Assembly: GCA_024408235.1 (NCBI GenBank)
Contig: JAKSVF010000001.1
Span: 29,417 to 93,416, forward strand
Length of the DNA stretch: 64,000 nucleotides
Origin: Bacilli bacterium
GTDB taxonomy: Bacteria; Bacillota_I; Bacilli_A; RFN20; CAG-826
Reading direction: 5' to 3'
Part shown: positions 3 to 60,671 of the stretch, in pieces
Layout of the letters: each line of letters begins with the position of its first letter
How positions within the stretch are numbered: position 1 is the stretch's first letter
Program-made: the position numbers and the translations under genes
The notes under the pieces: generated by a model
Told to the model about the DNA's origin: nothing
What the model saw: only the letters and a program-made list of their open reading frames with translations
Databases searched by the model: none

Positions 3-3000
3 ATAGCCGACTCTGGAATGGATGCATTTAAGAACGCTAACAAGGATTACATCTACACAGCCAACAAAGATGAACTGAGATATGAAAATAGACAGCTCAT
101 CAGAATTCTTGAAGCTGCAGTCGATCCTGTCTATGGAGTCATCGCTAATGATGGTGCCGTTAAGGAAATCAAGATCTCAGACGTTGACGCTTACTACTTA
201 GTGAACCCTCTCCTCAAGTCATTGGCAGAATCTCACGTCTTTAACTCCTTGTCCGATAAGCAGATTGCGGAAGGTGTTAGTATGACCGCGTTGGAGAAAG
301 AATTCTCATCGCTTTTAGGTTCGGCTTCCCTCTTTGAAAGCAAGACGAATGCAGACAAAGCGGTTTTAAGCGTGACAAAAGGCGTTACATCGTTTGAACA
401 TCGTGCAAATCTTTGGGACGATGAGATTGATCAGGTCACCAATGTCCTTACATCAATCCAGGATTTAGACATCGATCTCAATAATTTCTCGTTCGACAGC
501 ATCTTCCCAGATGGCAAGGATGAAGCGAAGAGACAAAAGCTCGAGAATATGCTTTTGAGCATCAATAACTCTCAGATTCTCCACTCAGTTCTCCCATACC
601 AAATCAATAAATCTGTTGATACCTTGGCGGATAGCCTTGGTTCATCATTCACACTCACGAATGTTAACGCCTACTACACCGGATATGATTCTGATGGTTT
701 AGCAAATAGATATGATGATGCGGAAATCGTTAATTTCTCATATATCATCCAAGATGGCTTAACAATGGGCGAACTTGATATGTCTTCGATGCATGGCGAC
801 CAGATCGATACTGTCATGTCATTGTTGAAGAGAATCGCTTCGAGCAACGTTTTCAACACAATCAAGGAGCCTGCATCAACCTATGAGATGACCGCTTTCG
901 AAAGCTTGTATTATCAGGCTATCGAACAAGCTAATGTTTTCGATGACATCAATCAGTTAAAAGCGTCTATTTTCCACGTAACAAACGGAGCTAGAACTGA
1001 CTTATCCGTCCTTGGTTCGCGCGCAGCTTCTTGGGAAAATGAAATCGATACCCTTCACCAGGTCTTCCTCGACTTTGATGGCCTCGGATTCCAAATTGAT
1101 AATTTCGATTACAATTCTCTCGATGAGTCCAGGGATTCAGAGCTTGCTACATTACTTGATGATGTGGACAAATCAATCACAATGCATTCAATGCTTCCTT
1201 TGAAGATCGAGGCTGCAATTGATGAAGTCGATGATTCGCTAGGAGAAGGTGTTTCTCTTGGAGTTGCTAACACAAGATACAAAGGCACATCTATTTTATC
1301 TTATGGTGATGGTCTTACTGTTGAGGTTCCAAATGCTTATGACGATTACGATGAATGTGAACACATCGCCCGAATCGTAAATAGAGGCTTGCATATGGGC
1401 TCGGTGGATTTAAGCGCCGGATCAACGGATACCAAATTCATCGACTTACTTATTGAGATGGGTCACTCTAACGTATTCAACACCTTGCCTGATAATAATT
1501 ACGGAATTGACCTCACTTCATTAGAAACTGTTTTCTCAACATCGGTTAAAAAATCGGGTATCTATTCTGAGAAGGAAGCTCAGGCATCCGCTTTGCTCGT
1601 TACCAACAAATCCTCGGACCTCGCTTTGAGAGGTGATTTATGGGAAGAGGAACTCGCCTATGTCCGTGCAACAATCAATGCGTTATCGGAAATCGATTTA
1701 GATATCGAGCACTTTGATTTATCAGCTCTTTTCACAGGCGGTCCAGAAGATGAAACGACTAGACAGAAAATGGTCACCCTCCTTAATTCATTAAGCGATT
1801 CTAAGACACTTCATTCTGTTGCCCCTATTAAACTTAGAACAACAATTGACTCCTACAAGAGTTCTTTGGCCGCTGGTCAGGTTTCTTTTGACAACGCAAA
1901 CTACGATTACAACGGCAAAGTGATATATGAGTTCGATGATACCTCATTAGGAAATGTCACATTACCAAACGCCTACGGATACGACGAAAACGAGGCTTTG
2001 TCATACATCATCATGGAGTCTTCAAATCTTCCAGATCAGAATCTTGCTGATTTAACATCCATCGACAGAACTCCATATATATCCCTATTAAAGAGACTTT
2101 CAGCAAGCCACGTTTTCAATACGCTTGAAGAAGGACTTACGCATTCTCCAAATCTCCTAACAGCATTCGAAAACACATATGTAAGCATTCTTGATGAAGG
2201 CAACGTTTATGAGCATTATGCAGAGCAAGAGCTTGAAGTTGATAGAATTGCCACATTTGAAGCAACTAAGGGCGTCTCCAATTTCGACAATATAAAAGCG
2301 ATTTGGGATGATGAACTCGATTTAGTCGAACAGATCATCACCGATTATCAGACATGCGGATTTACAATGACATCCATCAACATTGCAAACCTCTTCCCGG
2401 CATCTGCAACAGAAGAAGAAGCGGAACTCAGCAGAATGAACTTACAGGAATTGATGGATGACGTAAACTCGTCACTCACCCTCCATTCAACCCTCCATCG
2501 CACGGTCAATGAAGCTATTGATAAAGTCAGTGACAAGATGGGTGGAGATTCGATGGACAACGCAAATGTCTACTTCACCGGTTACTCGGTACCTGATAAA
2601 AAGCTTGGTAACTACTACACCGACGAGGAAGTTGAGAAACTCTCCTATATTGTTAAAGGCTGCATGAGAATGCCTGATGTCGACAAGAGCGACATTGGCT
2701 CAATCGATGCATCTAAAGTTACGGATTTGCTTGCTCATTTAGCAACAAGCCAAGTATTCAACTCACTTAAGGATGGAGAGCCATTTACCGCATTTGATAA
2801 CGCCTATGCCACCCTCATGACAACGGATGGCTTAAACGATGTCTATTACCATGCTCCAAACCCGGTTGATAAAGACGCTATTTATTCAACTTCAGCCGAT
2901 AAGGCTAAGGTTGTTGCAAGGTCAACATGGACACCTCTTACTTTATCCATTGATATCGATACATATGATGTTTCAAATATCAACGGTAACACTGGTTCAT

Positions 3001-5114
3001 TGCAGTACGTCTTAGAGTACTTTGTTGATCCGTCTAACTCAGACGTCATGGATTCACTTAATGGCGAATTCTCGTCTTTAACTGGAGATAAGATCTATGA
3101 TTCACTTACTAGGTTGAACTCGTGCGAATTAACAAAGGACATGGTGCCTAACATCATCGATAAGACAATTAACGATCCATCTTTCTCCCTAGGCTCAATC
3201 AACATCAAGAGAGCAAATCCGTTCTATTGTTACAATGGATTATGGGGTAATAAGTATGATGACGATGAAATCGAATGCATCGCAAACATCATAACCGCTA
3301 ATAACAACATGAAGGATAGTGGTGGACATAGCATCTTCGCTAACCTCGGCTCGGCTACTATTACTCATTCAACGGTTGTCGAGTTAAAGAACTTGATGGA
3401 TGCAATGAACGAAAGCCAGGTATTCCATTTGTCAGGTGCTAGATCAGGCGCTGAATTCTTTGATTCAACAGTCGCTGCTTGGAAAGAGCCATTGACCGCA
3501 TTTGAACAGATCTTAGGAACTATCTATGAAGAGTCCAACCTCGCTTCTCTAGCATATAACTCAACTAGAGATGCATATGCTTCTTGGAGCGAGAAACTCT
3601 CTGCTCGAATGGGACACTTCCGCGATGGAAACCTCGAATCTCTCCACGGCGCAGTCGCCAATAGATATGAAATCGAAGTCGAAGCAATCTGCAACTTGAT
3701 TGATGTTGCTATCGACCTTGACCTATTGTCATCAGGTTTGAGCCTCGGTTCATTTGAACTCGGTTCATTCTCACCTGAACAAGTCAGATTCTTATCTAAC
3801 GCTCTCAACATCGTTGACATGGTTTCAGACGCTCTTCCAAATAAGATAGATTCATTCGTTAAGACAACAGGCGTTGATAAATACAATGCCGTTGATGTAA
3901 TGGGCGAAAAACTCGATATTGCCAATTACTTCCTCTCTCAAGAACAGATGAGGGATGGCGCTATCGATTCTATCTACACCTTCTCAAATTCAATTTACGA
4001 ACCGGCTGAATATGATACTTTAGGCAATAAGACCAAGGATGCTAAGTACACTACATTCACAGGTCCTGATGCAGTGAACATGTCTGAGTGGATTCTTGGC
4101 GAAGGAAAGTTCTCCTCAATATTGAAATTCATTGATGAGCCAAACGGTTTCTATGCGTCATCGCATTACACGGCTACCCCATTAGACGGTTCAAGCCTTG
4201 CCGCCATCAATGCTGCAACAGACACCTATGACTTCACAGCGAGAGATGCATTCTTCTATAACATCTCCTCATTCAGCGTTGCTGGAGAAGTTCTTAACCT
4301 CGGTTCATACCTCGGAGCGGGTGACTCGTTGCTACTTGATCTTAAGGGCTCTAGAGACGCGTTTGACCACGTCGAGAAAACTGACGCATCTTACTTAAGC
4401 GAAGAAATGTCCATCCACTCAACAATGATCGATCTTGGAACAATATACGTTGCCCTTAATGCATCGTCATCACTTGGAACTCTTCCAACTCACTTAGCTG
4501 AGTTTGAAATGTTAGCAAGCGACCTCGCATATTCAAGCGTTGAATCATTGTTCACATACTTCGGCACAAATAGCTCATCTCTATCCGGAAGATATGCTTC
4601 AGGACTTTTAGAAGAACCTGTTCATAAAGCTAACTCCTACATCAACGGCAACTCTTACTTCACCGCTCTGTTCGACGCTACAGGCCTCCCATACCCATCA
4701 AGCTATATGGATGGCGCCTCGGTTAGAACCCGTTCGTCCTACGATGAAGGATCTACATTAAGCACATACTCCATCTACTCAGATAACGGCTCGGATTTAA
4801 GAAGCGAAGATGTAAAGGATGCCTACATGAGCATGCTTAGAATCGTGAAGGAAATCGGCATTGGCGCATTAACGTCAAGCCACACAATTGATACCGTTTC
4901 CCTCAACTCTGCGTTCTCAACAATCGACTCCCTCGTATCAAATCCACGAGTCAGCGCATTAACAAAGTTATTCTATCTCTCATCCACATATGACTATCTC
5001 CTCAACAGAGGCGCATTCCACGGCGAAGTCCTCCCATTCCTGAGTGAGATTGATGTGCCAAATCCGTTCGATTCGGCCTTCACTTATAGTGGATTATCCT
5101 CATTCATCGCTTAA
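3..5114 (+). CDS. Giant acidic repeat protein, 5'-partial (reading frame open to the window edge; at least 1698 aa). About six tandem repeats of roughly 200-220 aa each carry an S[HNQ]VFN[ST]L motif. Function unknown; possibly surface or secreted.
   Basis: Uninterrupted ORF with no in-frame stop back to nt 3. Repeats seen in the translation: SHVFNSL, SNVFNTI, SNVFNTL, SHVFNTL, SQVFNSL, SQVFHL spaced about 200 aa apart, each followed by W(D/E)(D/E)E(I/L)D. Strongly D/E-rich. Confidence 0.6.
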   Translation: MADSGMDAFKNANKDYIYTANKDELRYENRQLIRILEAAVDPVYGVIANDGAVKEIKISDVDAYYLVNPLLKSLAESHVFNSLSDKQIAEGVSMTALEKEFSSLLGSASLFESKTNADKAVLSVTKGVTSFEHRANLWDDEIDQVTNVLTSIQDLDIDLNNFSFDSIFPDGKDEAKRQKLENMLLSINNSQILHSVLPYQINKSVDTLADSLGSSFTLTNVNAYYTGYDSDGLANRYDDAEIVNFSYIIQDGLTMGELDMSSMHGDQIDTVMSLLKRIASSNVFNTIKEPASTYEMTAFESLYYQAIEQANVFDDINQLKASIFHVTNGARTDLSVLGSRAASWENEIDTLHQVFLDFDGLGFQIDNFDYNSLDESRDSELATLLDDVDKSITMHSMLPLKIEAAIDEVDDSLGEGVSLGVANTRYKGTSILSYGDGLTVEVPNAYDDYDECEHIARIVNRGLHMGSVDLSAGSTDTKFIDLLIEMGHSNVFNTLPDNNYGIDLTSLETVFSTSVKKSGIYSEKEAQASALLVTNKSSDLALRGDLWEEELAYVRATINALSEIDLDIEHFDLSALFTGGPEDETTRQKMVTLLNSLSDSKTLHSVAPIKLRTTIDSYKSSLAAGQVSFDNANYDYNGKVIYEFDDTSLGNVTLPNAYGYDENEALSYIIMESSNLPDQNLADLTSIDRTPYISLLKRLSASHVFNTLEEGLTHSPNLLTAFENTYVSILDEGNVYEHYAEQELEVDRIATFEATKGVSNFDNIKAIWDDELDLVEQIITDYQTCGFTMTSINIANLFPASATEEEAELSRMNLQELMDDVNSSLTLHSTLHRTVNEAIDKVSDKMGGDSMDNANVYFTGYSVPDKKLGNYYTDEEVEKLSYIVKGCMRMPDVDKSDIGSIDASKVTDLLAHLATSQVFNSLKDGEPFTAFDNAYATLMTTDGLNDVYYHAPNPVDKDAIYSTSADKAKVVARSTWTPLTLSIDIDTYDVSNINGNTGSLQYVLEYFVDPSNSDVMDSLNGEFSSLTGDKIYDSLTRLNSCELTKDMVPNIIDKTINDPSFSLGSINIKRANPFYCYNGLWGNKYDDDEIECIANIITANNNMKDSGGHSIFANLGSATITHSTVVELKNLMDAMNESQVFHLSGARSGAEFFDSTVAAWKEPLTAFEQILGTIYEESNLASLAYNSTRDAYASWSEKLSARMGHFRDGNLESLHGAVANRYEIEVEAICNLIDVAIDLDLLSSGLSLGSFELGSFSPEQVRFLSNALNIVDMVSDALPNKIDSFVKTTGVDKYNAVDVMGEKLDIANYFLSQEQMRDGAIDSIYTFSNSIYEPAEYDTLGNKTKDAKYTTFTGPDAVNMSEWILGEGKFSSILKFIDEPNGFYASSHYTATPLDGSSLAAINAATDTYDFTARDAFFYNISSFSVAGEVLNLGSYLGAGDSLLLDLKGSRDAFDHVEKTDASYLSEEMSIHSTMIDLGTIYVALNASSSLGTLPTHLAEFEMLASDLAYSSVESLFTYFGTNSSSLSGRYASGLLEEPVHKANSYINGNSYFTALFDATGLPYPSSYMDGASVRTRSSYDEGSTLSTYSIYSDNGSDLRSEDVKDAYMSMLRIVKEIGIGALTSSHTIDTVSLNSAFSTIDSLVSNPRVSALTKLFYLSSTYDYLLNRGAFHGEVLPFLSEIDVPNPFDSAFTYSGLSSFIA

Positions 5115-5115
5115 T

Positions 5116-5727
5116 ATGACCCAATTACTACCATATCAGGAATACATAAGCGAAATTAAAATCCTAGGATCACGCTTTATCGCCGTATTGGAGCCGATTC
5201 TAGAGGAGAGTGAGATAGATGCTCATCTCGAACGTTTAAAGGCCTTATATCCAAAAGCAACGCATTATTGCTACGCTTCAAGATTCGGCCCAAGCGAAAG
5301 AATGAGCGATGATGGTGAACCATCACGAAGTGCCGGCATGCCACTTCTAACGATTCTCAGGCAACATGGCATCACTCAAGCCCTCATCCTCGTCATCAGA
5401 TATTTTGGTGGGACAAAGCTAGGATTGCCACGTCTCACTAGAACATATAGAGATGCGGCGGAGGATGTAATTGCAAACGCGAAGTTCGCAACCATCATCG
5501 AGGGTTCCACGCAAAACCTTACGATGAGCTATGCCAATTACGAGCATGTAAAGAAACTCGTGGCAAAAACTAACCTCGAGATGTACGGAGAAATATATTC
5601 CGAGGATGTGACCATTACCCTAAAAGGTGAGAATGAGTCGCTATTAAAATTCGTTTCTTCCCTTCCTTACGAGATCATCAGGGGAGAAATCCAGTCAGTC
5701 AAATTATTAAAGGAGGCAGAACAATGA
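5116..5727 (+). CDS. yigZ: YigZ / IMPACT family protein (UPF0029)
   Basis: KILGSRFIAVL start and the DDGEPsrSAG motif typical of IMPACT/YigZ. ATG at 5116 lies 2 nt after the upstream stop; the longer ORF from 5044 is an N-terminal extension artefact. Confidence 0.7.
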   Translation: MTQLLPYQEYISEIKILGSRFIAVLEPILEESEIDAHLERLKALYPKATHYCYASRFGPSERMSDDGEPSRSAGMPLLTILRQHGITQALILVIRYFGGTKLGLPRLTRTYRDAAEDVIANAKFATIIEGSTQNLTMSYANYEHVKKLVAKTNLEMYGEIYSEDVTITLKGENESLLKFVSSLPYEIIRGEIQSVKLLKEAEQ

Positions 5728-14110: not shown

Positions 14111-15274
14111 ATGGAACAGATTAGCGAACAAGAAAGACAATTATTCTTCAAGACTTTGGATTACCTCAAAGTCAACCCTCGTGTTGATAGGGAAATTTTC
14201 CTTTCGCTTTATTTGAATGCAAAAGAAGCTGCTGATTCTTTGAAAGAAGAGAATGAAATATTCTCAAGAATGCAGATCAACCCTATTGAAATCATTCTTT
14301 ATTTGGTAAACGAATACACTTTTTATCTCGCATCCCATAACAAGGTTTCGCAGCAAGATATCGCAAGCAACGAAGATCTTCAGGATTATATCGTCGCTAT
14401 TGCAGTTGATAAGTATTACACGAATGAACACATGGCATTTAAATCAACCGTTCTTTCGAATAAATACTTGCCTGAGATATCTACAGTCACCTTATATTTG
14501 AACTTCGTCCTAGGTATCTTGTCGAGATACAAAATGAACGATCCAACTCAAACGTTGCTCGTAGATATTCTTCATAAGGGATTCTCTCAAGCTAAGTGTG
14601 TCGTTGAACTCGTTAATAACGGATATGAAACAGAAGCATTCTCCGCGTGGAGAACACTTCATGAAATTGAATGCATATTCGCTTTATTGATAAAACACGG
14701 CGAACCAGTAATCAAAGCCTATCTTGACCATATGCAATACGCTAGAGCGTTTAGACATATGATTCCTGATAAGGAAGCGACTGATGCGGTCTTCGTTAGA
14801 ATCAAAGAGGGAATGAGATCTCATGACCTTAAGAGCAAGGATATGAAGCGCTTTATTGAATATGGATGGTTATTCGCCATTCCAGACATCGATAAGGTGG
14901 TGGATTTCAAACTCAATTTCAGAGATGGAGTTGAGCGTTGTGCCGGGTTGCGCGATAAGGCTGAGATATATGAGATGTCATCAGAGATCGCTCATTCTTC
15001 ACCATTGCTAATCTACTCTGATAATAGAAAGTCATACTATTACCTCATCACTATAATGAATCTCTATGAGTCATTCTTCAGATTAGAAAAGTACTTCGCT
15101 TCATTCTATCTATCAAAACTTCCTGAAGAGGAAAAGAAGAAATATTTCGAGATGAGAAACAAATACCTTGGCCAGCTTCAAGTATGCTATGACCTTGAGA
15201 GATTTAGATTTGCTTCAATAACAGGACAGATAAAACAGCCTGAGGGCAATTCGATTGAAGGACAAAAAGAATGA
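14111..15274 (+). CDS. Hypothetical alpha-helical protein (387 aa), probably co-transcribed with addBA
   Basis: ATG lies 8 nt after the addA stop with no intervening terminator. No motif recognisable by eye. Confidence 0.55.
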   Translation: MEQISEQERQLFFKTLDYLKVNPRVDREIFLSLYLNAKEAADSLKEENEIFSRMQINPIEIILYLVNEYTFYLASHNKVSQQDIASNEDLQDYIVAIAVDKYYTNEHMAFKSTVLSNKYLPEISTVTLYLNFVLGILSRYKMNDPTQTLLVDILHKGFSQAKCVVELVNNGYETEAFSAWRTLHEIECIFALLIKHGEPVIKAYLDHMQYARAFRHMIPDKEATDAVFVRIKEGMRSHDLKSKDMKRFIEYGWLFAIPDIDKVVDFKLNFRDGVERCAGLRDKAEIYEMSSEIAHSSPLLIYSDNRKSYYYLITIMNLYESFFRLEKYFASFYLSKLPEEEKKKYFEMRNKYLGQLQVCYDLERFRFASITGQIKQPEGNSIEGQKE

Positions 15275-17650: not shown

Positions 17651-18139
17651 ATGCATTGTACGATTATGATGCAGTGGTATAAGAAACTTACGTCAAATAA
17701 GAAATGCCTACTTCTGTTAGGCGTTTTTGATGCGTTTGTTTTCGTTTGCTTAATCCCATTCGCCTTTTTCTCAATGGATAGCGGATATTGGCTTGGAACC
17801 CTTATGCTCGGATGGCTTTTAGGTTCAGTTGCTCAGATCATCGCTTATGTCACAATCGTTTTTACTAGCAAGATGCTTACAACGCCTAATGGCACGACCA
17901 CAACCGGTACTCTTATGGGTGCTGGTGGTTTCTTCATTAGGTACTTTTTGTATGCGGCAGTTCTTACTTTATCGGCCATCTGTACGTTTAAACCGGAATG
18001 GCTTTTAGGCTTTGATAAATTTAATGTATTTACATGCGGCGCAGCGCTCGTTGTGCTCTCATTCTTTGTCATGATTTTTAAAGTCATTGAAATGAGGGGA
18101 GAAGCTGACCCGGTTAAGAAACAGGAGGAGTCGAACTAA
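17651..18139 (+). CDS. atpI: ATP synthase protein I-like (AtpI/AtpZ) small 4-TM membrane protein; start uncertain (17651 or 17666/17669)
   Basis: Four hydrophobic segments, and its position directly upstream of atpB with the stop overlapping the atpB start. Confidence 0.5.
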   Translation: MHCTIMMQWYKKLTSNKKCLLLLGVFDAFVFVCLIPFAFFSMDSGYWLGTLMLGWLLGSVAQIIAYVTIVFTSKMLTTPNGTTTTGTLMGAGGFFIRYFLYAAVLTLSAICTFKPEWLLGFDKFNVFTCGAALVVLSFFVMIFKVIEMRGEADPVKKQEESN

Positions 18140-25712: not shown

Positions 25713-26537
25713 TTACTTGTAGCCCTTAATAAGCGATCTAGCAGCGTCTAGGTCGTTTTTTACATTAACAGTGCCGTCTTCACATATCAGTAGAGGTTCG
25801 TATTCATTTAAAGAATATGCATCGAGAACTGATTGTTTGTTCGAATCGTCTAGCAAATCGAAATCAATGATGTCGACCCTCTTTTTTGATTTTTTGATTT
25901 CTGGGTATAACTCATTTTTATAGAAGTCAACTGAATCGTTATTGGTCGAATCTAATAAGTACTTAAGTGTTTTCTCATCTGTTATTGAGAAGGTTCTTGT
26001 GTGATATATCTCTGTAAGGGTAACGAATCTTTTGACTTCAACAGAGAGCCTAGAATATGAAACCGCTCCACCGACTATTTCAAAGGCTTTTTCAGAGTTT
26101 AGTCCAAGAACAGAAGGAGTTGCTGCGGAGATTAGCTCTTCATCTCCCTCAGCATATCCATAATACTCGTTCAAAGCGTCAACTTGTTTATGATATTCCT
26201 GGTACGTCTCATATGTTTTACCAGTATTCTCTATTACTCCGTACGCGATTGAGTTGGCTTTGCAGAAACCAACAAAAGTGTCTTTGAATCTAATGCAATG
26301 ACCACATGTCGTTTGCGTTAAGACAACTAGCATCCCAATACCCAAATCAAGTTGAGGTTTAATCTCGTCCCAGTTTTTGTAGTAGGCGTGATTGGAATAC
26401 GCAAGAGTGTCGTCTTCAAACGAAAGATTTACTTCCTCGGTCCTATCGACAAAAAAAGTTTTGCTGCCAACCCCATCTCCGCACGAGGTAAGGAGCAATG
26501 GCAAAATAGAAATCTCTAAGACAACTCTTTTTTTCAT
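25713..26537 (-). CDS. Lipoprotein with a thioredoxin-like CxxC motif (putative extracytoplasmic thiol:disulfide oxidoreductase)
   Basis: Signal peptide with lipobox LLTSC. TCGHC redox motif about 60 aa after the lipid-modified Cys. Its stop codon abuts the ATP-grasp gene stop (convergent, zero spacer). Confidence 0.6.
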   Translation of the reverse strand: MKKRVVLEISILPLLLTSCGDGVGSKTFFVDRTEEVNLSFEDDTLAYSNHAYYKNWDEIKPQLDLGIGMLVVLTQTTCGHCIRFKDTFVGFCKANSIAYGVIENTGKTYETYQEYHKQVDALNEYYGYAEGDEELISAATPSVLGLNSEKAFEIVGGAVSYSRLSVEVKRFVTLTEIYHTRTFSITDEKTLKYLLDSTNNDSVDFYKNELYPEIKKSKKRVDIIDFDLLDDSNKQSVLDAYSLNEYEPLLICEDGTVNVKNDLDAARSLIKGYK

Positions 26538-31621: not shown

Positions 31622-31639
31622 ATGTGATATAATCACATA
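31622..31639 (+). promoter_or_regulatory. Extended -10 promoter (TGaTATAAT at 31625-31633) embedded in an inverted repeat ATGTGAT-ata-ATCACAT
   Basis: TG plus a TATAAT hexamer lies between 7-bp inverted arms; GAGGA RBS and the ATG at 31657 lie downstream. Confidence 0.4.
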
Positions 31640-31656
31640 TGAATCGAGGATTCAAT

Positions 31657-32166
31657 ATGATCACCATTTCTTTATTAGGCTTAGACCAATACGTGGCTGG
31701 CCACTACAGCAAGACGCACACAGAAAATCTCGCTCAGCTTTTCGAAGTTGATGAAGACGCAGTATCTTTCTATGCGCCAAATTCCATCATTATTCACAAT
31801 GGAGTAGAACAGACTTCATGGAACACCGAAGTCAGAGTTCACCTTCCTACAAAGTTCGCACCACTTGAAGAGAAGGTTGCCGATTACCTTATCCAGACCC
31901 TTAAGGAAATCACAATTAACATGAACATAACATTCGAGTATTACGAAGAGGCTAGCCACTACGAATACCAGAATGATGAATACCCTAAGTTCATCAGAGC
32001 CGACAACATCGTCGACATGGATGACCCATACGCAGAAGAAAACGAAGAGGAATACGATGGACCAACTCCAGAGCCTTACCTCGGAAATATATTCGCCGGC
32101 AAAGAGGAAGAGTTAGACGCTAAATATAGCGCTGATGAAGAATACCTCACTGAAGAAGATAAATAA
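31657..32166 (+). CDS. Hypothetical protein with an acidic C-terminus (occupies the usual def/fmt position of this conserved locus)
   Basis: ORF with GAGGA RBS 7 nt upstream. D/E-rich C-terminal 60 aa; no recognisable catalytic motif. Confidence 0.55.
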   Translation: MITISLLGLDQYVAGHYSKTHTENLAQLFEVDEDAVSFYAPNSIIIHNGVEQTSWNTEVRVHLPTKFAPLEEKVADYLIQTLKEITINMNITFEYYEEASHYEYQNDEYPKFIRADNIVDMDDPYAEENEEEYDGPTPEPYLGNIFAGKEEELDAKYSADEEYLTEEDK

Positions 32167-32179
32167 TGGGGAGAATAGT

Positions 32180-33499
32180 ATGCAGACATTAGATATTTGT
32201 GAAGCAGTATTAACAGACGTTCTTGCCAATGACGTCTCATTCGCTGACGCTCTCAAAAAGGTCTTTAAATCAAGCGTTGACCTCCGCCCTCAGAGAAATA
32301 CAGTCGCATCTTTGGTTGGATGTGAACTTCGTCACCATCTTCTCTTCTCTTATCTCTTGAAGCCAATTGAAGTTTTGACTGATGAAGAAAAGAGACTTGT
32401 CTCTTTATGTCTTGCTGAGTATTACTTCTATCAGAGACTCAACAAAGATGAAGTCGATAGCCACCTCCTTGCAAAACTTGGAGAAGAAAAAATTGAACTC
32501 CTCAAACCGTTATTCGATAAATCGGGTAAGCCTGAGGAATACATCCCAGCTGAGATATCAAAATCAAGCAACAAGTACTTATCATTAAGATACAACACCC
32601 CAGAATGGGTTCTTAAGATCATTGAGCATTATGGTTTCGGAACAACGTACAAAGTATTAAGAAAAAATGCTCAGCAGAGAATCTCGACCGTCCGTGTTAG
32701 AGAAGGCTTTGATAAGAATACAATAGATCCTAACGCTTTCAAAGGCTCACCTGTGCCAGGTATTTATTACTATCAGGGCAAGGAATCCCTAAGAAAACTA
32801 GAAGCCGCCAAAGAAGGCAAGATCTTCAATGAAAGACTAGCGACTAAATTTATCTTAGATAAATACAGAGTCAGCGATCCTTCAGAACTTTTCATCTTTG
32901 ATGGAAATGGCGATGGTTCAATCTTCAAAGAAGCAATCGAAACCTACGGCACAAAGATCGGAATGAACTTTGGAGTCTATTCCGAAGACAAGTATGCAGA
33001 TGTCGCTAGAATGATTAGAACCGAAGGCTTAAAGAACATTAACTACTTTGCAGCTGATCCAACATTCCTTGATGCAGCTATCTCTCGCCCACAGGATTTG
33101 GTAATCGTATCGCCTAAATCCACAAACTTTGATTTGATTAGAGAACAGCCAGATTATCTTCTTCACTTCAAGAAGAGCGAAATGGATGAACTCTTTAGAA
33201 AAGAGAAAGAAGCGCTTGAAGGCGTTTCTAAGGTTGTCGCAGATGATGGACTCCTCATCTACATGGTTTACACAATCAGCAAGAAAGAAGGCCACCAGAC
33301 GATCTCCGAATTCTTGCTCAACCACACAGAATTCAAGTTCGTTAAAGAAGAACAGCTCTTCCCTCAGGATGAACTCGACACAGCAATGTACTACGCTGTT
33401 CTCAAAAAAGAAGAGAATGCTATCATTCTTGATAACCCAGCATCATTGGCTAACCCATTAGAGGGAACGGCCTTCGCTATGTCAGCAAAGGAAAGATAG
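32180..33499 (+). CDS. Sun/RsmB-family protein (NusB-like N-domain plus Rossmann-fold MTase domain), predicted to be catalytically inactive
   Basis: Domain order and conserved context (priA...sun-rlmN-stp-stk). Aligns to the RsmB C-terminus, but the SAM motif DxCAAPGGKT reads FDGNGDGSIF, the PC motif reads SPKS, and the TC catalytic Cys reads VYTISK. Confidence 0.6.
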   Translation: MQTLDICEAVLTDVLANDVSFADALKKVFKSSVDLRPQRNTVASLVGCELRHHLLFSYLLKPIEVLTDEEKRLVSLCLAEYYFYQRLNKDEVDSHLLAKLGEEKIELLKPLFDKSGKPEEYIPAEISKSSNKYLSLRYNTPEWVLKIIEHYGFGTTYKVLRKNAQQRISTVRVREGFDKNTIDPNAFKGSPVPGIYYYQGKESLRKLEAAKEGKIFNERLATKFILDKYRVSDPSELFIFDGNGDGSIFKEAIETYGTKIGMNFGVYSEDKYADVARMIRTEGLKNINYFAADPTFLDAAISRPQDLVIVSPKSTNFDLIREQPDYLLHFKKSEMDELFRKEKEALEGVSKVVADDGLLIYMVYTISKKEGHQTISEFLLNHTEFKFVKEEQLFPQDELDTAMYYAVLKKEENAIILDNPASLANPLEGTAFAMSAKER

Positions 33500-33503
33500 A
33501 ATC

Positions 33504-34553
33504 ATGAAGAAGAATCTCTTTGGTTTTTCGCTTCCTGCTTTAGAAGAAGAAATGACAAGCCGTGGAGAAACTCGTTATAGAGCAAGACAGCTTTATGAGT
33601 GGATTTACGTTAAAAAAGTCTATGACTTCTCGTTAATGACAGATATATCCAAGAATTTCAGAAAAGTTCTTGAGGAAGAATATTGCTTGGACTTGCCAAC
33701 AATTTTCACACGCCAAAATGCCGCTGACGGAACCGTCAAGTTATTACTTGAGATGGAAGATCATTCAAAGGTTGAGACGGTCCTTATGAGATATGATTAC
33801 GGCAATGTCATCTGCGTATCGTCTCAAGTCGGATGCTCAATGGCTTGTGCTTTTTGCGCCTCCGGAATTCTAGCCAAGACAAGAAACCTTACTGCATCGG
33901 AAATGGTAGGGGAAGTCATTCTTATGAACCAGTTACTTGCTGAAGAGGGTGAGAATATCTCCCATATCGTTGTAATGGGAACCGGTGAGCCATTTGACAA
34001 TTACGATAACGTAATGTCATTTGTGAGAGTCATGAATGAGCAAAGGGGCCTTGCGATTGGTGCAAGACACATAACCGTCTCCACATGCGGCCTTGTCGAT
34101 GGCATCAGGAAATACGCTAACGAGGGAATTCAAATCAATCTTGCGATTTCTCTCCATGCCCCAAATGATGAAATCAGAAATCAGATAATGCCAATTTCAA
34201 GAAAATACAACATGGATGAGCTTCTCGATGCAGTTAAATACTATGTTGAAACAGCAGGGCGCAGAGTCACTTTTGAATATATCATGATCAAAGGTCTTAA
34301 CGACTCAATTGAGAATGCTGATGAACTTGCTAGAAGACTCAGGGGAATTTTCTGTTACGTTAACCTCATTCCGCTGAATCCAGTTAAAGAAAAACCGTTT
34401 GAAAGAAGCGAAAATGTCCACGCTTTCAATAGGCGTTTAAACGATAAAGGTGTCAACTGTACTGTAAGAAAAGAGTTCGGTACAGATATTGATGCCGCTT
34501 GTGGACAACTCAGAGTTAAATATGAGAGGAAGGGGAAGAACTATGGCAACTAA
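33504..34553 (+). CDS. rlmN: 23S rRNA m2A2503 / tRNA m2A37 methyltransferase, radical SAM
   Basis: Radical-SAM Cys cluster CSMACAFC, the MGTGEP motif, and a C-terminal CGQL. Confidence 0.92.
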   Translation: MKKNLFGFSLPALEEEMTSRGETRYRARQLYEWIYVKKVYDFSLMTDISKNFRKVLEEEYCLDLPTIFTRQNAADGTVKLLLEMEDHSKVETVLMRYDYGNVICVSSQVGCSMACAFCASGILAKTRNLTASEMVGEVILMNQLLAEEGENISHIVVMGTGEPFDNYDNVMSFVRVMNEQRGLAIGARHITVSTCGLVDGIRKYANEGIQINLAISLHAPNDEIRNQIMPISRKYNMDELLDAVKYYVETAGRRVTFEYIMIKGLNDSIENADELARRLRGIFCYVNLIPLNPVKEKPFERSENVHAFNRRLNDKGVNCTVRKEFGTDIDAACGQLRVKYERKGKNYGN

Positions 34554-35295
34554 ATACCGTGGAAGCTATGGATATAAAGTCCATCCAGGCAAAGTTCGCA
34601 CAAACAACGAAGACCAGGCGTCCGTTTTGATGAATCCAGATGGTGAAATCCTTCTTGTCGTTTGCGATGGAATGGGCGGATCACAGAAAGGTGATGTTGC
34701 CTCAAGAATGGCGATCGACATCATAACCAAATCATTCCCCTCAAAGAAAAAACATGTTTTTGCGAGCGCTGATAAGGCTTGGCTTACAAAAATTGCTAAG
34801 AAGGCAAATTCCGCTATCTACGAAACAGCCGATAAGAATCCTAGGTATAAAGGTATGGGAACTACGCTTGTTGCGGCCCTTATCTCTAATAAGAGGATGA
34901 TTGTTGTCTCCATTGGCGATAGCCGTTGCTATTGTTTAAAAGACGGTGAAATTAAACAACTGACAGAGGATCAGACCTATGTTCAGATGTTAATCAACAC
35001 CGGAAAGATCACTCCAGAAGAAGCCCTTACTCATCCAAAGAGACACGTTCTTTTGAACGCGATGGGCATCTATCCGTCATTATCAATCGACATCAAACAA
35101 TATAAATACCGTGGGGAAACAATTTTATTATGCACTGATGGTTTATATAACCAGGTTCCAGCGGATGAGATAAAGGCAATTCTCTCAAGCGATGAGAGAG
35201 TTGACCAGAAACCAATATCACTAATCATCGCCGCTAACGCACACGGCGGAAGCGACAACATTGGAGTTGCTGTTTGGGAGACTGAAGCACAATGA
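34543..35295 (+). CDS. stp: PP2C-family Ser/Thr protein phosphatase
   Basis: VVCDGMGG and GGSDNI motifs. AGGGGAAG RBS. Overlaps rlmN at its start and stk at its end. Confidence 0.88.
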   Translation: MATKYRGSYGYKVHPGKVRTNNEDQASVLMNPDGEILLVVCDGMGGSQKGDVASRMAIDIITKSFPSKKKHVFASADKAWLTKIAKKANSAIYETADKNPRYKGMGTTLVAALISNKRMIVVSIGDSRCYCLKDGEIKQLTEDQTYVQMLINTGKITPEEALTHPKRHVLLNAMGIYPSLSIDIKQYKYRGETILLCTDGLYNQVPADEIKAILSSDERVDQKPISLIIAANAHGGSDNIGVAVWETEAQ

Positions 35296-36173
35296 TAGAG
35301 ATCGGAAGTAAAATAGACGGTCGCTATCGTGTAACCGGTCGTATCGCTCACGGCGGTATGGCAGATGTCTACGAGGGCTTTGATTCACTATCCCATCGCT
35401 ATGTCGCAATCAAGGTCATGCGAGTCGATTGCATGGCTGACCCAGAAAATATCAAGCGTTTTAGAAAAGAGTGCGAGGCATGCGCTTGTTTTAATTCGCC
35501 TCATATCGTCCGCATCTATGGTCAGGGCACTGTTGATGGTGGACGCCCTTACATGATTAACGAGTATGTTGAGGGCAGAACTTTAAGAGATAAATTGAAC
35601 ATGGTTGAAAACCATTGTTTAAGCGCTAGAGAAGCATGTGAATTCATGGTGCAGCTTTGCCTTGGAATGCAATACGTCCATGATCATGGAGTTGTTCATC
35701 GTGACATCAAGCCGGATAACATGTTCTACGCCGCAGACGGCTCTGTCAAAATCACCGACTTCGGAATTTCCAGTCATGTCGGCGAAAAAGCAAATAGAGA
35801 AGCCATTCCTGGAACGCTATTCTATACGGCTCCAGAAATCATCACAGGAGGAGACCCTCTCATCCAATCTGACATTTTTTCGATGGGTGTAGTTTTCTAT
35901 GAGATGCTAACGGGCAAACTCCCTTTCAGCGGGGAAGATAAGAAAGCTGTCGTAAGCGCAATCGTTAAAAAGAGCGCTCCAATTCCATCAGATGAGTATT
36001 CTTCGATTCCTAAAGCGGTTGATAGAATCGTCATTAAATGCCTTCGCAAGAGACATCAAGAGAGATATCAGAACTGCAATCAACTTAGAAGAGCGATCGA
36101 ATCTGTCCTTAAGGACAAGAATGCTTTTAAGGAAAAGAAATCACTCTTATCAAAGATATTTGGATTCAAATAA
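35292..36173 (+). CDS. stk: Ser/Thr protein kinase, kinase domain only (no TM segment or PASTA repeats)
   Basis: Hanks motifs VAIK, HRDIKPDN, DFGIS, APE. The 293-aa length ends right after the kinase domain. Confidence 0.85.
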   Translation: MIEIGSKIDGRYRVTGRIAHGGMADVYEGFDSLSHRYVAIKVMRVDCMADPENIKRFRKECEACACFNSPHIVRIYGQGTVDGGRPYMINEYVEGRTLRDKLNMVENHCLSAREACEFMVQLCLGMQYVHDHGVVHRDIKPDNMFYAADGSVKITDFGISSHVGEKANREAIPGTLFYTAPEIITGGDPLIQSDIFSMGVVFYEMLTGKLPFSGEDKKAVVSAIVKKSAPIPSDEYSSIPKAVDRIVIKCLRKRHQERYQNCNQLRRAIESVLKDKNAFKEKKSLLSKIFGFK

Positions 36174-36176
36174 ACA

Positions 36177-36842
36177 ATGGGAAATTATAAGAACAAAACA
36201 ACATATATAGCCCCATCTATTCTCGCTGCAGATCCGAATAGAATCGAAGACGAAATAGCGTTGATAAAGACTTCGAAGGCTGCATTCGTCCATATAGACA
36301 TAATGGATGGAAAATTCGTTAGAGCGACGACTTTTAATGATGATTTCGTAAAAAGGGTAATCGACGTTTCTGATCGTCTAGTCAAGGATGTCCATATAAT
36401 GGTGGAAGAGCCGTGGATTATCGGTCCTAAGTTTGCAAAGATGGGTGCATCTATTGTCACGTTCCACTATGAGGCGTGCGGAGATGACCAGGTCGTTTTT
36501 AAGACTATCAAAGCCATAAGAGACGCCGGCTCTAAAGTCGGAATATCAATCAAGCCTAATACGCCAGTAGAAGTATTGAATCCTTTTCTTGACCAAATCG
36601 ACCTTGTTCTTATTATGACGGTAGAACCTGGCGCTGGTGGCCAATCGTTCATGGCAGATATGATGGTGAAAGTTAAGAAACTCTCATCAATTGATGGCCG
36701 TAAGTTTTTGATTGAGTGCGATGGTGGAATAAAAGACACCACCGTCTCAATCGTTAAAGAAGCTGGAGCCGACGTTTTGGTCGCTGGTTCATATTTATTC
36801 GGTCATAAAGATTTTAAAGAAAGAGTGGAGACCCTTTTATAA
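36177..36842 (+). CDS. rpe: Ribulose-phosphate 3-epimerase
   Basis: IAPSILAAD N-terminus, HIDIMDG, and a TIM-barrel epimerase signature. Confidence 0.9.
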   Translation: MGNYKNKTTYIAPSILAADPNRIEDEIALIKTSKAAFVHIDIMDGKFVRATTFNDDFVKRVIDVSDRLVKDVHIMVEEPWIIGPKFAKMGASIVTFHYEACGDDQVVFKTIKAIRDAGSKVGISIKPNTPVEVLNPFLDQIDLVLIMTVEPGAGGQSFMADMMVKVKKLSSIDGRKFLIECDGGIKDTTVSIVKEAGADVLVAGSYLFGHKDFKERVETLL

Positions 36843-37516
36843 TGCCTATTTCATATTTCATCTTATTTACTGCCGTGCCTGCTATCATGTTAGCGGCCTT
36901 CCTAATCACCGTTTTCTTCGGTTACAAAAAAGAAGGAGAGGAATACTCCCTCAAAGCTTATTTGACTTATGAGGCCTTCGAGAGAATGAATCCGGCTACA
37001 AGGGTTATAGCGCGCATACTATATTTTATATATTTAGCCTCGCTACTTCCTTTCTATGCCTATGTCATTAAATATAGTGGTGGATATAACGATCAACTCG
37101 TATTATTCTCCGTCTTCAACTTATTGGCAGGAGTTGTAGCAGTTGGTATAAGCGTTGCCCTTACGTATGTAAAAGCAACATTGCCTCAGCCTCATCTATT
37201 CCTTGCGATAGGTCATGGGCTGGTGGTTGTCGTAAATGCGTTCACAATGTCTAGCGTATTGAATCTCATCAGAACGGCTAACATGGTAAGTTCAAGATAT
37301 GACATATTCATATTGATCGTCATCGTTCTCCTTATACTCATAGCGACATTTGTCATCCTCTTATTCGTGAAGAGGGATGTCTATTCTTGGGAATATGTAG
37401 AGAAAGAAGGTAAGAGAAGTTTCTTTGCCTTAGCGTTCACGGAATGGTTAGTAGTATTCTTCAATCTTGCCGTCTACTTAATAAGCGTCATCTCATTATT
37501 TGTTATCAATTGCTAA
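36842..37516 (+). CDS. Hypothetical polytopic membrane protein (6 predicted TM segments)
   Basis: Hydrophobicity pattern; ATGA overlap with rpe. Confidence 0.5.
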   Translation: MPISYFILFTAVPAIMLAAFLITVFFGYKKEGEEYSLKAYLTYEAFERMNPATRVIARILYFIYLASLLPFYAYVIKYSGGYNDQLVLFSVFNLLAGVVAVGISVALTYVKATLPQPHLFLAIGHGLVVVVNAFTMSSVLNLIRTANMVSSRYDIFILIVIVLLILIATFVILLFVKRDVYSWEYVEKEGKRSFFALAFTEWLVVFFNLAVYLISVISLFVINC

Positions 37517-49346: not shown

Positions 49347-49925
49347 ATGTACCGCATGTTCTACAATCATGAAGTAACAGGGGATACCTTGTTCATCATA
49401 ATGAATTCATCCAAAATCTTTGACCATGGAGTAACAATCGATGACGTCTATGCGATGTATAGCGGCGATGAGCTCATCGGGGTCAACATCAACAATCTTT
49501 CTAGAATCTTGAAGATCAAGGCTCACGGAATGATCGTTACACCTGGAGAAGAATTGGTAAACGTCGTTAACTCAATCCTCAAAAGAGCAAAGATTGCTCC
49601 GCTTCCATATTGCACATATTCCGGTTATAGAGTAGGGCAGATCGAAGCGATTGAAGGAAACAAAATAGCAGTAGAGATGGCAGGTGAACACCTAAAAGCA
49701 ATCTCTAATTACTCAAACCTTAAAATTGGAGACTATGTCGTCTTGGCATTAGATGGCACAATCCAATATAACGGTGCCACATTCAGAAACTACATTGAAG
49801 ATGGCACAACAATCAATTGCCTTATCTGCAACGCAAAAGAACTCCGTCTAAATATTGAAGGCGAAGGGGCGTTCGTTGTTGAAGGATATAAAACAGGAGA
49901 AGACTTCTATTTGGCAGGAGAGTAA
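49347..49925 (+). CDS. YtpR-like putative tRNA-binding protein (DUF4479 plus Myf/EMAP-type tRNA-binding domain)
   Basis: Sits next to trmB as ytpR does in Bacillus. The central segment RVGQIEAIE...IGDYVVLALDG resembles an OB-fold tRNA-binding domain. Confidence 0.45.
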   Translation: MYRMFYNHEVTGDTLFIIMNSSKIFDHGVTIDDVYAMYSGDELIGVNINNLSRILKIKAHGMIVTPGEELVNVVNSILKRAKIAPLPYCTYSGYRVGQIEAIEGNKIAVEMAGEHLKAISNYSNLKIGDYVVLALDGTIQYNGATFRNYIEDGTTINCLICNAKELRLNIEGEGAFVVEGYKTGEDFYLAGE

Positions 49926-58619: not shown

Positions 58620-59936
58620 ATGAGAAAAGCTAGAATCGGAGTTTGCTGTTTAACAAGAAAAACATATGACTATCAAACGGCATACGCACTATATCAGGAA
58701 AGAACCGCTGAATTAGTAAAGGACACATCTGTTGACTATTGTGTTTATGGCGAAAACGTTATTGAACCGGAAGATGCTGAAAAGGTTATCCACTATTTTG
58801 AACAGCAGGAAATAGACGCTGTCGTCATCGTCTCGGCCACATTCCATCTTGGACATCTCGCTCTCATGATCAACGACGCCTTGAAGAAACCTATCCTCCT
58901 TTGGGGCTTTGATGAACTCCCATATAACGGTGGAAAGATCAGATTGAATGCAGTGTGCGGCGTTAACTTAAATGCTTCTAACCTTTATAAGGCAGGGGTT
59001 GATAATTACTGTGTCACAATCGGCGATACAATCGATGAGAACTGGGTAAAAGCAATCAAAGCTATGGTCGCTATCCACACAACAAAAATTGGAATTGTCG
59101 GTTATCGCGCACAGGGATTCTTCAATGTCGGAGTTGACGAACTTAACCTCTATAAGAACACAGGTTTGCTCGTCAATCATTATGAGATTAGTGACTTATT
59201 CAAAAAACAGGCTGACGATGAAACCGTTGCTCGTGAAATTGAATGCGTAAAGAGAGAGTGGAATGTAGAAGGCATTAATGATAAGCAAGTTGAATTAGTG
59301 GCTAGACTTGTCGCTTCAACTGAGCTTTTCTTAAAAGAAAAAGGAGTCGATGCTCTTGCAATTCGCTGCTGGCCTGAATTCGCTGCAACCTACGGAATCT
59401 CTCCTTGCGCAATGATGTCTATTCTTCAATCCAGAGGAATTCTTTTGGCATGCGAAGGAGATGTTGAAGCCCTTGTTTCGATGATTGCCGTTAAGGCTTT
59501 AGGCGAACCAACACCATTTATGGCGGATTTATCTCAAGTTAACTTTAAAGATAATTACGCTCTTCTCTGGCATTGTGGCGTTGCGCCATGCAATCTTTGG
59601 GACAAGAAGTGCGTAAGATCTCTTGATACATACTTTGCAGGCGGAAAAGGGGTTACCGCAGGATTCGTCCTCAAAGATGGCGACTTCTCAATTTTCCGTA
59701 TCGACACAGCTAGAGGCAAAACAAGAATATTCTATGAAGAAGGCACAGCTGTTCCGATGGAAAAACTCCTCACAGGTACTTTCGCAAAAGTCCATTTCAA
59801 ACACGATGTCAAAGATGTTCTTGATGTTGTAGTTAATACGGGCGTTGCTCATCACGTCGTTATGGGCTATGTCCAATACGAACCGGTCATTAAGATTCTT
59901 GCTAAGTTGACTGGTTGGGAAATCATCAAGTGCTAA
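58620..59936 (+). CDS. L-fucose/L-arabinose isomerase-fold aldose-ketose isomerase (candidate sulfoquinovose isomerase)
   Basis: 438 aa, FucI/AraA-like central and C-terminal regions. GGAGG RBS. Confidence 0.45.
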   Translation: MRKARIGVCCLTRKTYDYQTAYALYQERTAELVKDTSVDYCVYGENVIEPEDAEKVIHYFEQQEIDAVVIVSATFHLGHLALMINDALKKPILLWGFDELPYNGGKIRLNAVCGVNLNASNLYKAGVDNYCVTIGDTIDENWVKAIKAMVAIHTTKIGIVGYRAQGFFNVGVDELNLYKNTGLLVNHYEISDLFKKQADDETVAREIECVKREWNVEGINDKQVELVARLVASTELFLKEKGVDALAIRCWPEFAATYGISPCAMMSILQSRGILLACEGDVEALVSMIAVKALGEPTPFMADLSQVNFKDNYALLWHCGVAPCNLWDKKCVRSLDTYFAGGKGVTAGFVLKDGDFSIFRIDTARGKTRIFYEEGTAVPMEKLLTGTFAKVHFKHDVKDVLDVVVNTGVAHHVVMGYVQYEPVIKILAKLTGWEIIKC

Positions 59937-59954: not shown

Positions 59955-60671
59955 GTGCCGGTGTGGTTGAGTAAGGCCCTATTTGTTGTAGTCGTCTTTT
60001 TAACAAACATTATCCAAGCGATAACTGGCTTTGCTGGCACTGTTCTTGCCATGCCTTTTTCCATTCAACTTGTTGGTAAGCCATATGCAAAACCGGTGTT
60101 GAATGCCATAGCATTGCTGGTCTGCATTATTGTTGTAGTACGCAACTTTAAGAAGATTGACTGGAAATGCTTATTAGAGATTATCGTTTTCATGGGTATC
60201 GGTATGGTTGCCGGTTTCTTCCTTGAAAAGTATCTCTACTCGAAATGGTTCCTAAAAATATATGGAATCATTATCGTGTTCATCGCTATTTATTACTTCT
60301 TTGTGGATAATCCAATTAAACTTCCTAAACCCATTGGATGGGTGATCATGTTCCTTGCGGGAATTATCCACATGATATTTGTCTCAGGCGGCCCGCTTCT
60401 AATCATTGCTGCCAAGAATAAAATCAAGGATAAAGAAACCTTCAGAGCGACTTTGTCAATGGTATGGGTGATACTCAACTCATCAATACTCGTCACTGAT
60501 GCGGTAGGCGGGAACTTCTCATTGGATCAACTTTGGATTCTCCTCATTATGATTCCAACAGTCGTTATTTCGATTCTTATCGGGAAGTTTGCCCTTAAGA
60601 AAATGTCTAACAACCTTTTCATGAAATTAACTTGTGTTCTCTTATTTATTTCTGGATTCCTAGTCATATGA
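59955..60671 (+). CDS. TSUP / TauE-SafE family membrane transporter (candidate sulfonate product exporter); GTG start
   Basis: About 238 aa with 7-8 TM segments. The two half-repeats each have a Gly-rich motif: ITGFAGTVLAMPF and FVSGGPLLIIA. GTG at 59955. Confidence 0.6.
   Translation: MPVWLSKALFVVVVFLTNIIQAITGFAGTVLAMPFSIQLVGKPYAKPVLNAIALLVCIIVVVRNFKKIDWKCLLEIIVFMGIGMVAGFFLEKYLYSKWFLKIYGIIIVFIAIYYFFVDNPIKLPKPIGWVIMFLAGIIHMIFVSGGPLLIIAAKNKIKDKETFRATLSMVWVILNSSILVTDAVGGNFSLDQLWILLIMIPTVVISILIGKFALKKMSNNLFMKLTCVLLFISGFLVI

Follow-up and report, generated by a model that had tools for sequence, protein, structure and literature searches.

A giant, strongly acidic helical-repeat protein of RFN20-type Bacilli, probably rooted in the cell membrane by its N terminus

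The DNA considered here, a window of 64,000 nucleotides (nt) from the Bacilli bacterium assembly GCA_024408235.1 (contig JAKSVF010000001.1, positions 29,417 to 93,416 of the forward strand), opens inside a giant gene of the + strand whose product is, in our reading, most likely a membrane-rooted surface protein. The frame is uninterrupted from nt 3 to a TAA stop codon at 5112-5114 and translates to 1,703 amino acids, poor in cysteine and strongly acidic (isoelectric point 4.3, net charge -147). An earlier note, made from the letters of the window, had counted at least 1698 visible residues in a frame open to nt 3; the open frame stands, the count rises to 1,703, and the ATG at nt 18, where the list of open reading frames (ORFs) begins the gene (18-5114), is the first in-frame ATG and codes for an internal methionine. 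A homologue search of 5.8 billion protein clusters returned nine relatives, among them a 98%-identical full-length copy of 2,783 amino acids (P0001). This copy confirms the proposal that the gene extends beyond the window: 1,080 residues lie upstream, the portion at hand is the C-terminal 61% of the protein, and the gene is cut by the window edge only. The 90%-identity cluster of P0001 also holds an NCBI entry of 2,783 amino acids, MCQ2796859.1 ("hypothetical protein MJ241_00160 [Bacilli bacterium]").

The gene is functional and under strong purifying selection. In an independent assembly of the locus (L001), the last 5,112 nt of the gene align with the window without a gap or a single insertion or deletion, and the two differ at 99 synonymous and 29 non-synonymous sites, for a ratio of non-synonymous to synonymous rates (dN/dS) of 0.078. 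The absence of indels together with this low ratio argues for a working gene, and the pseudogene that the earlier note had held out as a way of being wrong is not what is found.

Most of the visible protein consists of tandem repeat units. The motif S[HNQ]VF[NH] recurs at window amino acids 77, 281, 489, 702, 916 and 1138, a period of 204-222 amino acids. Self-BLAST of the whole protein returned the diagonal alone, and the repeats emerged after the protein was cut into units at these motif anchors: units 1-4 then align with each other in pairwise BLAST at 28-31% identity (E-values of 1e-12 to 1e-31). In the pairwise comparison units 5 and 6 give weak matches, yet they are strong against a unit profile that was iterated over homologues and drew on 137 full units; all six window units match this profile with E-values of 1e-40 to 1e-51. 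The six tandem units of about 200-220 amino acids described in the earlier note are borne out by these values. Its VFN-type motif is likewise found in every unit, whereas the W(D/E)xE and LHS motifs, which it had also assigned to all of them, are confined to units 1-4.

The full-length protein has seven tandem units, at amino acids 928-2430 of P0001, and six of these lie in the window. Unit 1 of the full protein (P0001 amino acids 928-1130, profile E-value 1.7e-25) is represented in the window by its C-terminal end at nt 3-134 (+), where window amino acids 1-44 correspond to P0001 amino acids 1081-1124, and the remainder is upstream. The following units, all on the + strand, are numbered W1 to W6. 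W1, the second of the seven, occupies nt 135-779 (amino acids 45-259; profile E-value 9.6e-51). An AlphaFold model of amino acids 41-263 is all-helical, with eight helices in about 215 amino acids (predicted local distance difference test score, pLDDT, 87.5; predicted template modelling score, pTM, 0.82). W2 (nt 750-1397, amino acids 250-465; E-value 1.5e-45) is 30% identical to W1 with a pairwise E-value of 3e-23, and it is followed by W3 (nt 1374-2042, amino acids 458-680; E-value 9.8e-41) and by W4 (nt 2019-2687, amino acids 673-895; E-value 4.7e-47), which is 31% identical to W1 (pairwise E-value 4e-31). W5 (nt 2658-3338, amino acids 886-1112; E-value 8.1e-52) has diverged, keeping SQVFNS and losing W..EI and LHS. 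The last and most diverged unit, W6 (nt 3327-4052, amino acids 1109-1350; E-value 9.2e-45), is 60% identical to unit 7 of the relative P0002 and at most 17% identical to the other units of its own protein; it is orthologous to the last unit of the relatives. At the DNA level, Tandem Repeats Finder reported no array with a period near 640 nt, just short weak repeats at the motif positions. The duplications are therefore ancient rather than a product of assembly, as the earlier note had concluded from the divergence of the units.

The module of about 215 amino acids and eight helices belongs to no family described in the resources searched: the unit has no match among Pfam, NCBIfam or PDB sequences, and a Foldseek search with the W1 model found none in PDB or BFVD. 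The earlier note, which did not recognise the repeat signature and proposed a Foldseek run on one unit as a check, was right on this point, and the match to a well-characterised domain family that it had named as a refutation did not turn up. On the scale of the whole protein, Pfam scans found no family above the cut-off in the window fragment, P0001, P0006 or P0009, and NCBIfam scans found none at E-values up to 1. The best Pfam match is Spectrin_Anc-1_2, at an E-value of 0.005 and 17.5 bits against a cut-off of 28, over 49 residues of one unit. Spectrin-type repeats resemble the present ones in being tandem helical modules, but they are three-helix bundles of about 106 amino acids rather than eight helices in about 215. 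Membership in the spectrin family was rejected given the sub-threshold score, the eight-helix unit and the lack of any spectrin-like Foldseek match.

The repeats are followed by a non-repetitive, serine-rich and acidic tail that runs with its TAA codon from nt 4053 to 5114 (+; amino acids 1351-1703) and contains no cysteine, membrane helix, LPxTG motif or Pfam match. It measures 353 amino acids, in place of the roughly 500 first estimated, and its described enrichment in serine, threonine and glycine is moderate, at 31% of residues compared with 23% in the repeats. A tail profile converges on 42 of 156 family proteins, most of which have a tail of similar length (median 349 amino acids), and this disparity marks the tail as the fastest-evolving part of the protein. 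An end motif, YL..YDY.LNR..FHG, is kept at 26% overall identity, and the divergence is gradual with phylogeny.

The N-terminal part of the protein, which lies outside the window, was located through P0001. It has four hydrophobic helices, at amino acids 11-29, 43-61, about 127-161 and 186-204, and none afterwards; where a signal peptide had been looked for, these membrane helices are found instead, and no cleavable signal peptide is present in P0001. An AlphaFold model of P0001 residues 1-455, built from a 39-sequence alignment (pLDDT 82.5, pTM 0.77), shows residues 118-164 as one continuous helix, which confirms four membrane passes and not five. In the same model the second loop, of about 65 amino acids, forms a beta hairpin and a helix, and a further helical domain occupies residues 229-454. 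The region of about 700 amino acids between helix 4 and the repeats is mostly helical and conserved, residues 205-1075 of P0001 having high occupancy across 94 representatives, and G31, G35, R170, P199 and N205 are near-invariant in the N-terminal domain. A Foldseek search of PDB with the model of the N-terminal region found nothing.

The loops of this domain differ sharply in charge. Those after helices 1 and 3 carry 4 and 10 lysine and arginine residues in P0001 (means of 3.1 and 7.5 over 39 diverse members), and a net negative charge is found in loop 2 and over the 50 residues that follow helix 4. It is well established that basic loops of membrane proteins tend to stay on the cytoplasmic side (the positive-inside rule), and by this rule the N terminus, loop 2 and everything beyond helix 4 should lie outside the cell. 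From the charge distribution and the AlphaFold model, some 2,580 residues after helix 4 are thus predicted to be extracellular. The surface location offered in the earlier note is supported in this indirect way, through membrane topology; the C-terminal anchor for which it suggested looking is absent, and the anchor sits at the N terminus. Sortase or lipoprotein anchoring was rejected: there is no LPxTG-like motif anywhere in P0001, no hydrophobic segment after amino acid 205, and no lipobox in its first 40 amino acids.

The distribution of the family is narrow. Searched with HMMER against 1.84 billion representative proteins, the unit profile finds 230 proteins at an E-value of 1e-3 or lower and 183 at 1e-10 or lower, nearly all of them 1,500-3,000 amino acids long with several units, and almost all of one architecture. 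The four-helix N-terminal domain is present in 135 of 156 retrieved proteins; all 156 have isoelectric points of 4.05-4.8, and their units number from 0 to 8, with a mode of 4. By way of P0001 the window protein shares the features of the family, namely the four-helix N terminus, an "AY-D/N-N-S" region, at least one unit, an isoelectric point below 5 and a position upstream of Impact_N/PepP. A scan of one genome per species, covering 185,579 species, gave 48 loci in 48 different assemblies, one in each, all of them metagenome-assembled genomes (MAGs) or otherwise metagenome-derived and most labelled Bacilli or Bacillales. At least 3 of the 48 gene-bearing MAGs belong to family CAG-826 of the order RFN20. 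One of the loci (L036) is from Coprobacillus sp. CAG:826, and another (L020) is from the MAG ChiGjej1B1-22543, a 1.2-Mbp genome that its authors place in order RFN20, family CAG-826 (PMC8035907). The RFN20 families CAG-826 and CAG-288 have been predicted to lack peptidoglycan, and the order RFN20 to lack sortases (PMC10868615). The protein is restricted to one clade of RFN20-type Bacilli, uncultured gut and rumen bacteria with small genomes, and no description of the family was found in the literature. The type of host that the earlier note had guessed at, reduced-genome Firmicutes or Mollicutes, agrees well with these uncultured Bacilli MAGs, among which are RFN20/CAG-826 genomes of about 1.2 Mbp, from relatives of the Mycoplasmatales for which an absence of peptidoglycan is predicted. 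Seven loci (L004, L014, L019, L026, L047, L049 and L050) carry the titles Roseburia hominis, Lachnospiraceae bacterium, Faecalibacillus sp. or Staphylococcaceae despite a syntenic Bacilli-type locus; these labels are probably wrong, or the bins mixed.

Comparison of units within and between proteins gives some idea of how the array evolves. In the clade of the window protein, units at the same position are 53-75% identical between species, compared with 17-35% between the units of one protein; the units are positional orthologues. In P0009 (L051, 3628-6321), units 2 and 4 are 64% identical and units 3 and 5 are 75% identical, with at most 27% identity to units of other proteins, a pattern pointing to a block of two units that was duplicated recently in this lineage; units 3 and 4 of P0005 are 51% identical. 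The first and last units are orthologous across clades. Fixed end units combined with lineage-specific internal duplications argue that internal units are gained and lost while the ends stay in place. Some distant giant proteins (P0122, 4,489 amino acids; P0088, 2,323 amino acids; P0136, 1,396 amino acids) match only the middle of the unit, about profile positions 100-170, with a period of about 100 amino acids and 7-11 copies. P0122 and P0088 begin with a membrane domain like that of the family, and an "AYNNS"-type motif occurs in P0122 as well. The 215-amino-acid unit may have arisen by growth of a shorter helical element, and the family may be part of a wider superfamily.

The giant gene is followed directly by a gene for a 203-amino-acid protein of the Impact_N/YigZ family (nt 5116-5727, +; Pfam UPF0029, E-value 3e-30). 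The ORF list starts this gene at a GTG at 5044, overlapping the giant gene by 70 nt; on the 98%-identical contig the called gene begins with the ATG at 5116. That ATG stands one base past the giant stop codon (junction TAA-T-ATG), so the GTG start is probably an over-extension; the junction itself suggests tight translational coupling of the two genes. The Impact_N neighbour is shared by six other loci (L001, L002, L051, L052, L054 and L055), with a ParA-like gene between it and the giant gene in L051. The neighbourhood is constant in all contexts recovered, down to 23% protein identity: divergent Rce1-like, TraX and thioredoxin genes lie upstream, and Impact_N is followed downstream by genes for Xaa-Pro aminopeptidase, glycerol kinase, AddB and AddA. 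Beyond the thioredoxin/TraX/Rce1-like block, genes for a LuxE-like acyl-protein synthetase and a LuxC-like acyl-CoA reductase are found in L002 (5353-7727) and L053 (109-2591). A DUF5677 protein is encoded directly after AddA, both here (nt 14111-15274, +) and in L002, as a conserved neighbour of AddAB in the clade.

The best reading of these observations is a lineage-specific, strongly acidic envelope protein that is probably a surface stalk or coat, or an adhesin, rooted in the membrane. The argument draws on the host as well as on the protein: in an order that has no sortases and is at least partly without peptidoglycan, a membrane-rooted surface stalk or coat is the most likely arrangement. 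The four N-terminal helices, with their basic loops in the cytoplasm, would hold the protein in the cytoplasmic membrane. The mostly helical region of about 700 amino acids would adjoin the membrane on the outside, followed by an extended array of seven eight-helix modules and then by the fast-evolving tail of about 350 amino acids. As a stalk or coat such a protein could space and protect the naked membrane; as an adhesin it could use its variable distal end to contact the surface of a host or partner. In either case the number of internal modules, 1 to 8 in different family members, would set its reach.

The main rival to the membrane-rooted surface protein is a membrane-tethered cytoplasmic scaffold, with inverted topology and the repeats on the cytoplasmic side. 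Mycoplasma and other wall-less relatives do use large helical internal proteins of a cytoskeletal kind, and the present protein is all-helical, has neither a cleavable signal peptide nor a lipobox, and is encoded among housekeeping genes. Reversing the topology, however, would expose the basic loops (4 and 10 lysines and arginines) and place the acidic loop in the cytoplasm, which contradicts the positive-inside rule in 39 diverse members, and the model has four passes, not five; a fast-evolving tail and a changing number of units are also more typical of exposed proteins. We regard the scaffold as rather unlikely.

A second possibility is a regular, S-layer-like lattice around the cell in which this protein would be the subunit. 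The protein is acidic, cysteine-poor and large, it would probably be abundant if it formed a coat, and its host lineage is partly without a wall. The earlier note had itself mentioned S-layer-like proteins, but Pfam scans found no SLH or other S-layer or cell-wall-binding domain, and an integral four-helix anchor with tandem modules of variable number fits a tethered filament better than a lattice subunit, which leaves the lattice improbable. Similarly doubtful is the idea that the four-helix domain is the working part, with a CvpA-like membrane function or a channel activity, for instance, and that the giant region regulates or localises it. This domain is the most widely conserved part of the family (135 of 156 proteins), it has the near-invariant residues listed above, and Colicin_V/CvpA (PF02674) is its most frequent weak match, seen in 7 of 39 members with a best E-value of 0.0027. 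All of these matches nevertheless fall below the Pfam cut-off, the Foldseek search of PDB was empty, and about 93% of the length would be left unexplained despite strong purifying selection.

A polymorphic toxin or secreted effector, with a variable C-terminal toxin on a repeat stalk, would account for the tail being conserved less than any other part (42 of 156 proteins have a recognisable one). It is nonetheless very improbable and was rejected: the tail diverges gradually and keeps its end motif, Pfam scans found no toxin domain, the gene is single-copy and syntenic, and the next gene is always Impact_N/YigZ, or ParA and then Impact_N, in place of a variable immunity-like gene. An assembly error or a pseudogene in decay is excluded by the indel-free match to the independent assembly at low dN/dS, by intact homologues in 48 genomes and by the divergence of the units at the DNA level.

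Giant surface proteins of other bacteria offer useful comparisons. Ebh of Staphylococcus is a giant envelope protein built from FIVAR-GA modules; it presumably forms a long rod and helps to keep the envelope intact. Like the present protein it belongs to the Bacillota, has many tandem all-helical modules in varying number, and is held by a membrane segment and not by a sortase link. The two differ in the module (126 amino acids in Ebh, about 215 amino acids and eight helices here), show no sequence relation, and are anchored differently, Ebh by a single C-terminal helix and the present protein by a four-helix N-terminal domain with no YSIRK-type signal peptide. Pfam scans at E-values up to 1 found no FIVAR, GA or DUF1542 domain. 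A second parallel is Gli349, a giant surface protein of wall-less Mycoplasma that is anchored at its N terminus and has a long repetitive outside part. The shared features are a length of about 3,000 amino acids, occurrence among wall-less or reduced relatives of the Bacilli, an N-terminal membrane root and a long repetitive part reaching away from the cell, which is a prediction in the present case. Homology to Gli349 was not detected, however, and the 230 proteins found by the unit profile are almost all of the present architecture; the repeats of Gli349 are about 100 amino acids long in contrast to the helical ones of about 215 here, and no gliding-machinery genes are neighbours of the present gene.

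The anchor itself can be compared with the CvpA/Colicin_V domain. Each has four membrane helices and basic loops on the cytoplasmic side; a G-x-x-R/K-G motif stands directly behind helix 1, and helix 4 leads into a large fused domain. A CvpA-type domain also serves as the anchor of a fused outside domain in the mycobacterial protease MarP. The differences are that loop 2 is long here, with its hairpin and helix, and that the matches remain below the family cut-off. A profile of the N-terminal membrane domain returned one fragment from a large database, where hydrophobic words swamp the word index. On the topology predicted above, the protein is in kind a giant membrane-anchored repeat surface protein, and what is new in it is the repeat module and the unusual four-helix anchor.

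The rest of the window offers a single hint on the wall status of the host. A PrpC-like PP2C phosphatase gene and a gene for a 293-amino-acid serine/threonine kinase lie at nt 34489-36173 (+), and a ribulose-phosphate epimerase gene (36177-36842) begins 4 nt later. The kinase is PrkC-like and has no PASTA domains; with the next gene so close, neither a membrane helix nor PASTA repeats could be accommodated. In walled Bacillota, kinases of the PrkC type usually have PASTA domains, and a PASTA-less form would fit a wall-less or wall-reduced host. No mur or pbp genes occur in the 64-kb window, a sample too small to bear on wall status. Eight further ORFs of 162-454 amino acids have no Pfam match at the thresholds used (17651-18139, 25713-26537 on the - strand, 31639-32166, 32135-33499, 36842-37516, 49347-49925, 58620-59936 and 60632-61654). 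They lie among genes for the F1Fo ATP synthase, PriA, RlmN, GlgC/GlgD/GlgA, LeuRS, glutamate dehydrogenase, CoaX, a GH31 enzyme and an alpha-amylase.

RFN20-type Bacilli, never yet brought into culture, are common in the guts of humans and animals, and the giant gene provides a concrete candidate for how a surface may be built without sortases and, in part, without a wall. The gene accounts for about 0.7% of a genome of 1.2 Mbp and is present as a single chromosomal copy at the same position across the clade. In its most far-reaching form, which is speculative and on balance unlikely, the protein would be the main cell-surface organiser of wall-less RFN20-type Bacilli: a forest of acidic helical stalks would replace peptidoglycan and sortase-anchored proteins, the variable tip would attach cells to the host or partner on which they depend, and the unit would be a new fold that acts as a length-adjustable spacer. 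Naming the repeat and the N-terminal region as families would label a few hundred hypothetical proteins, and the protein might serve as a surface marker by which these organisms could be visualised or enriched, and as a testable handle on their attachment to a host or partner.
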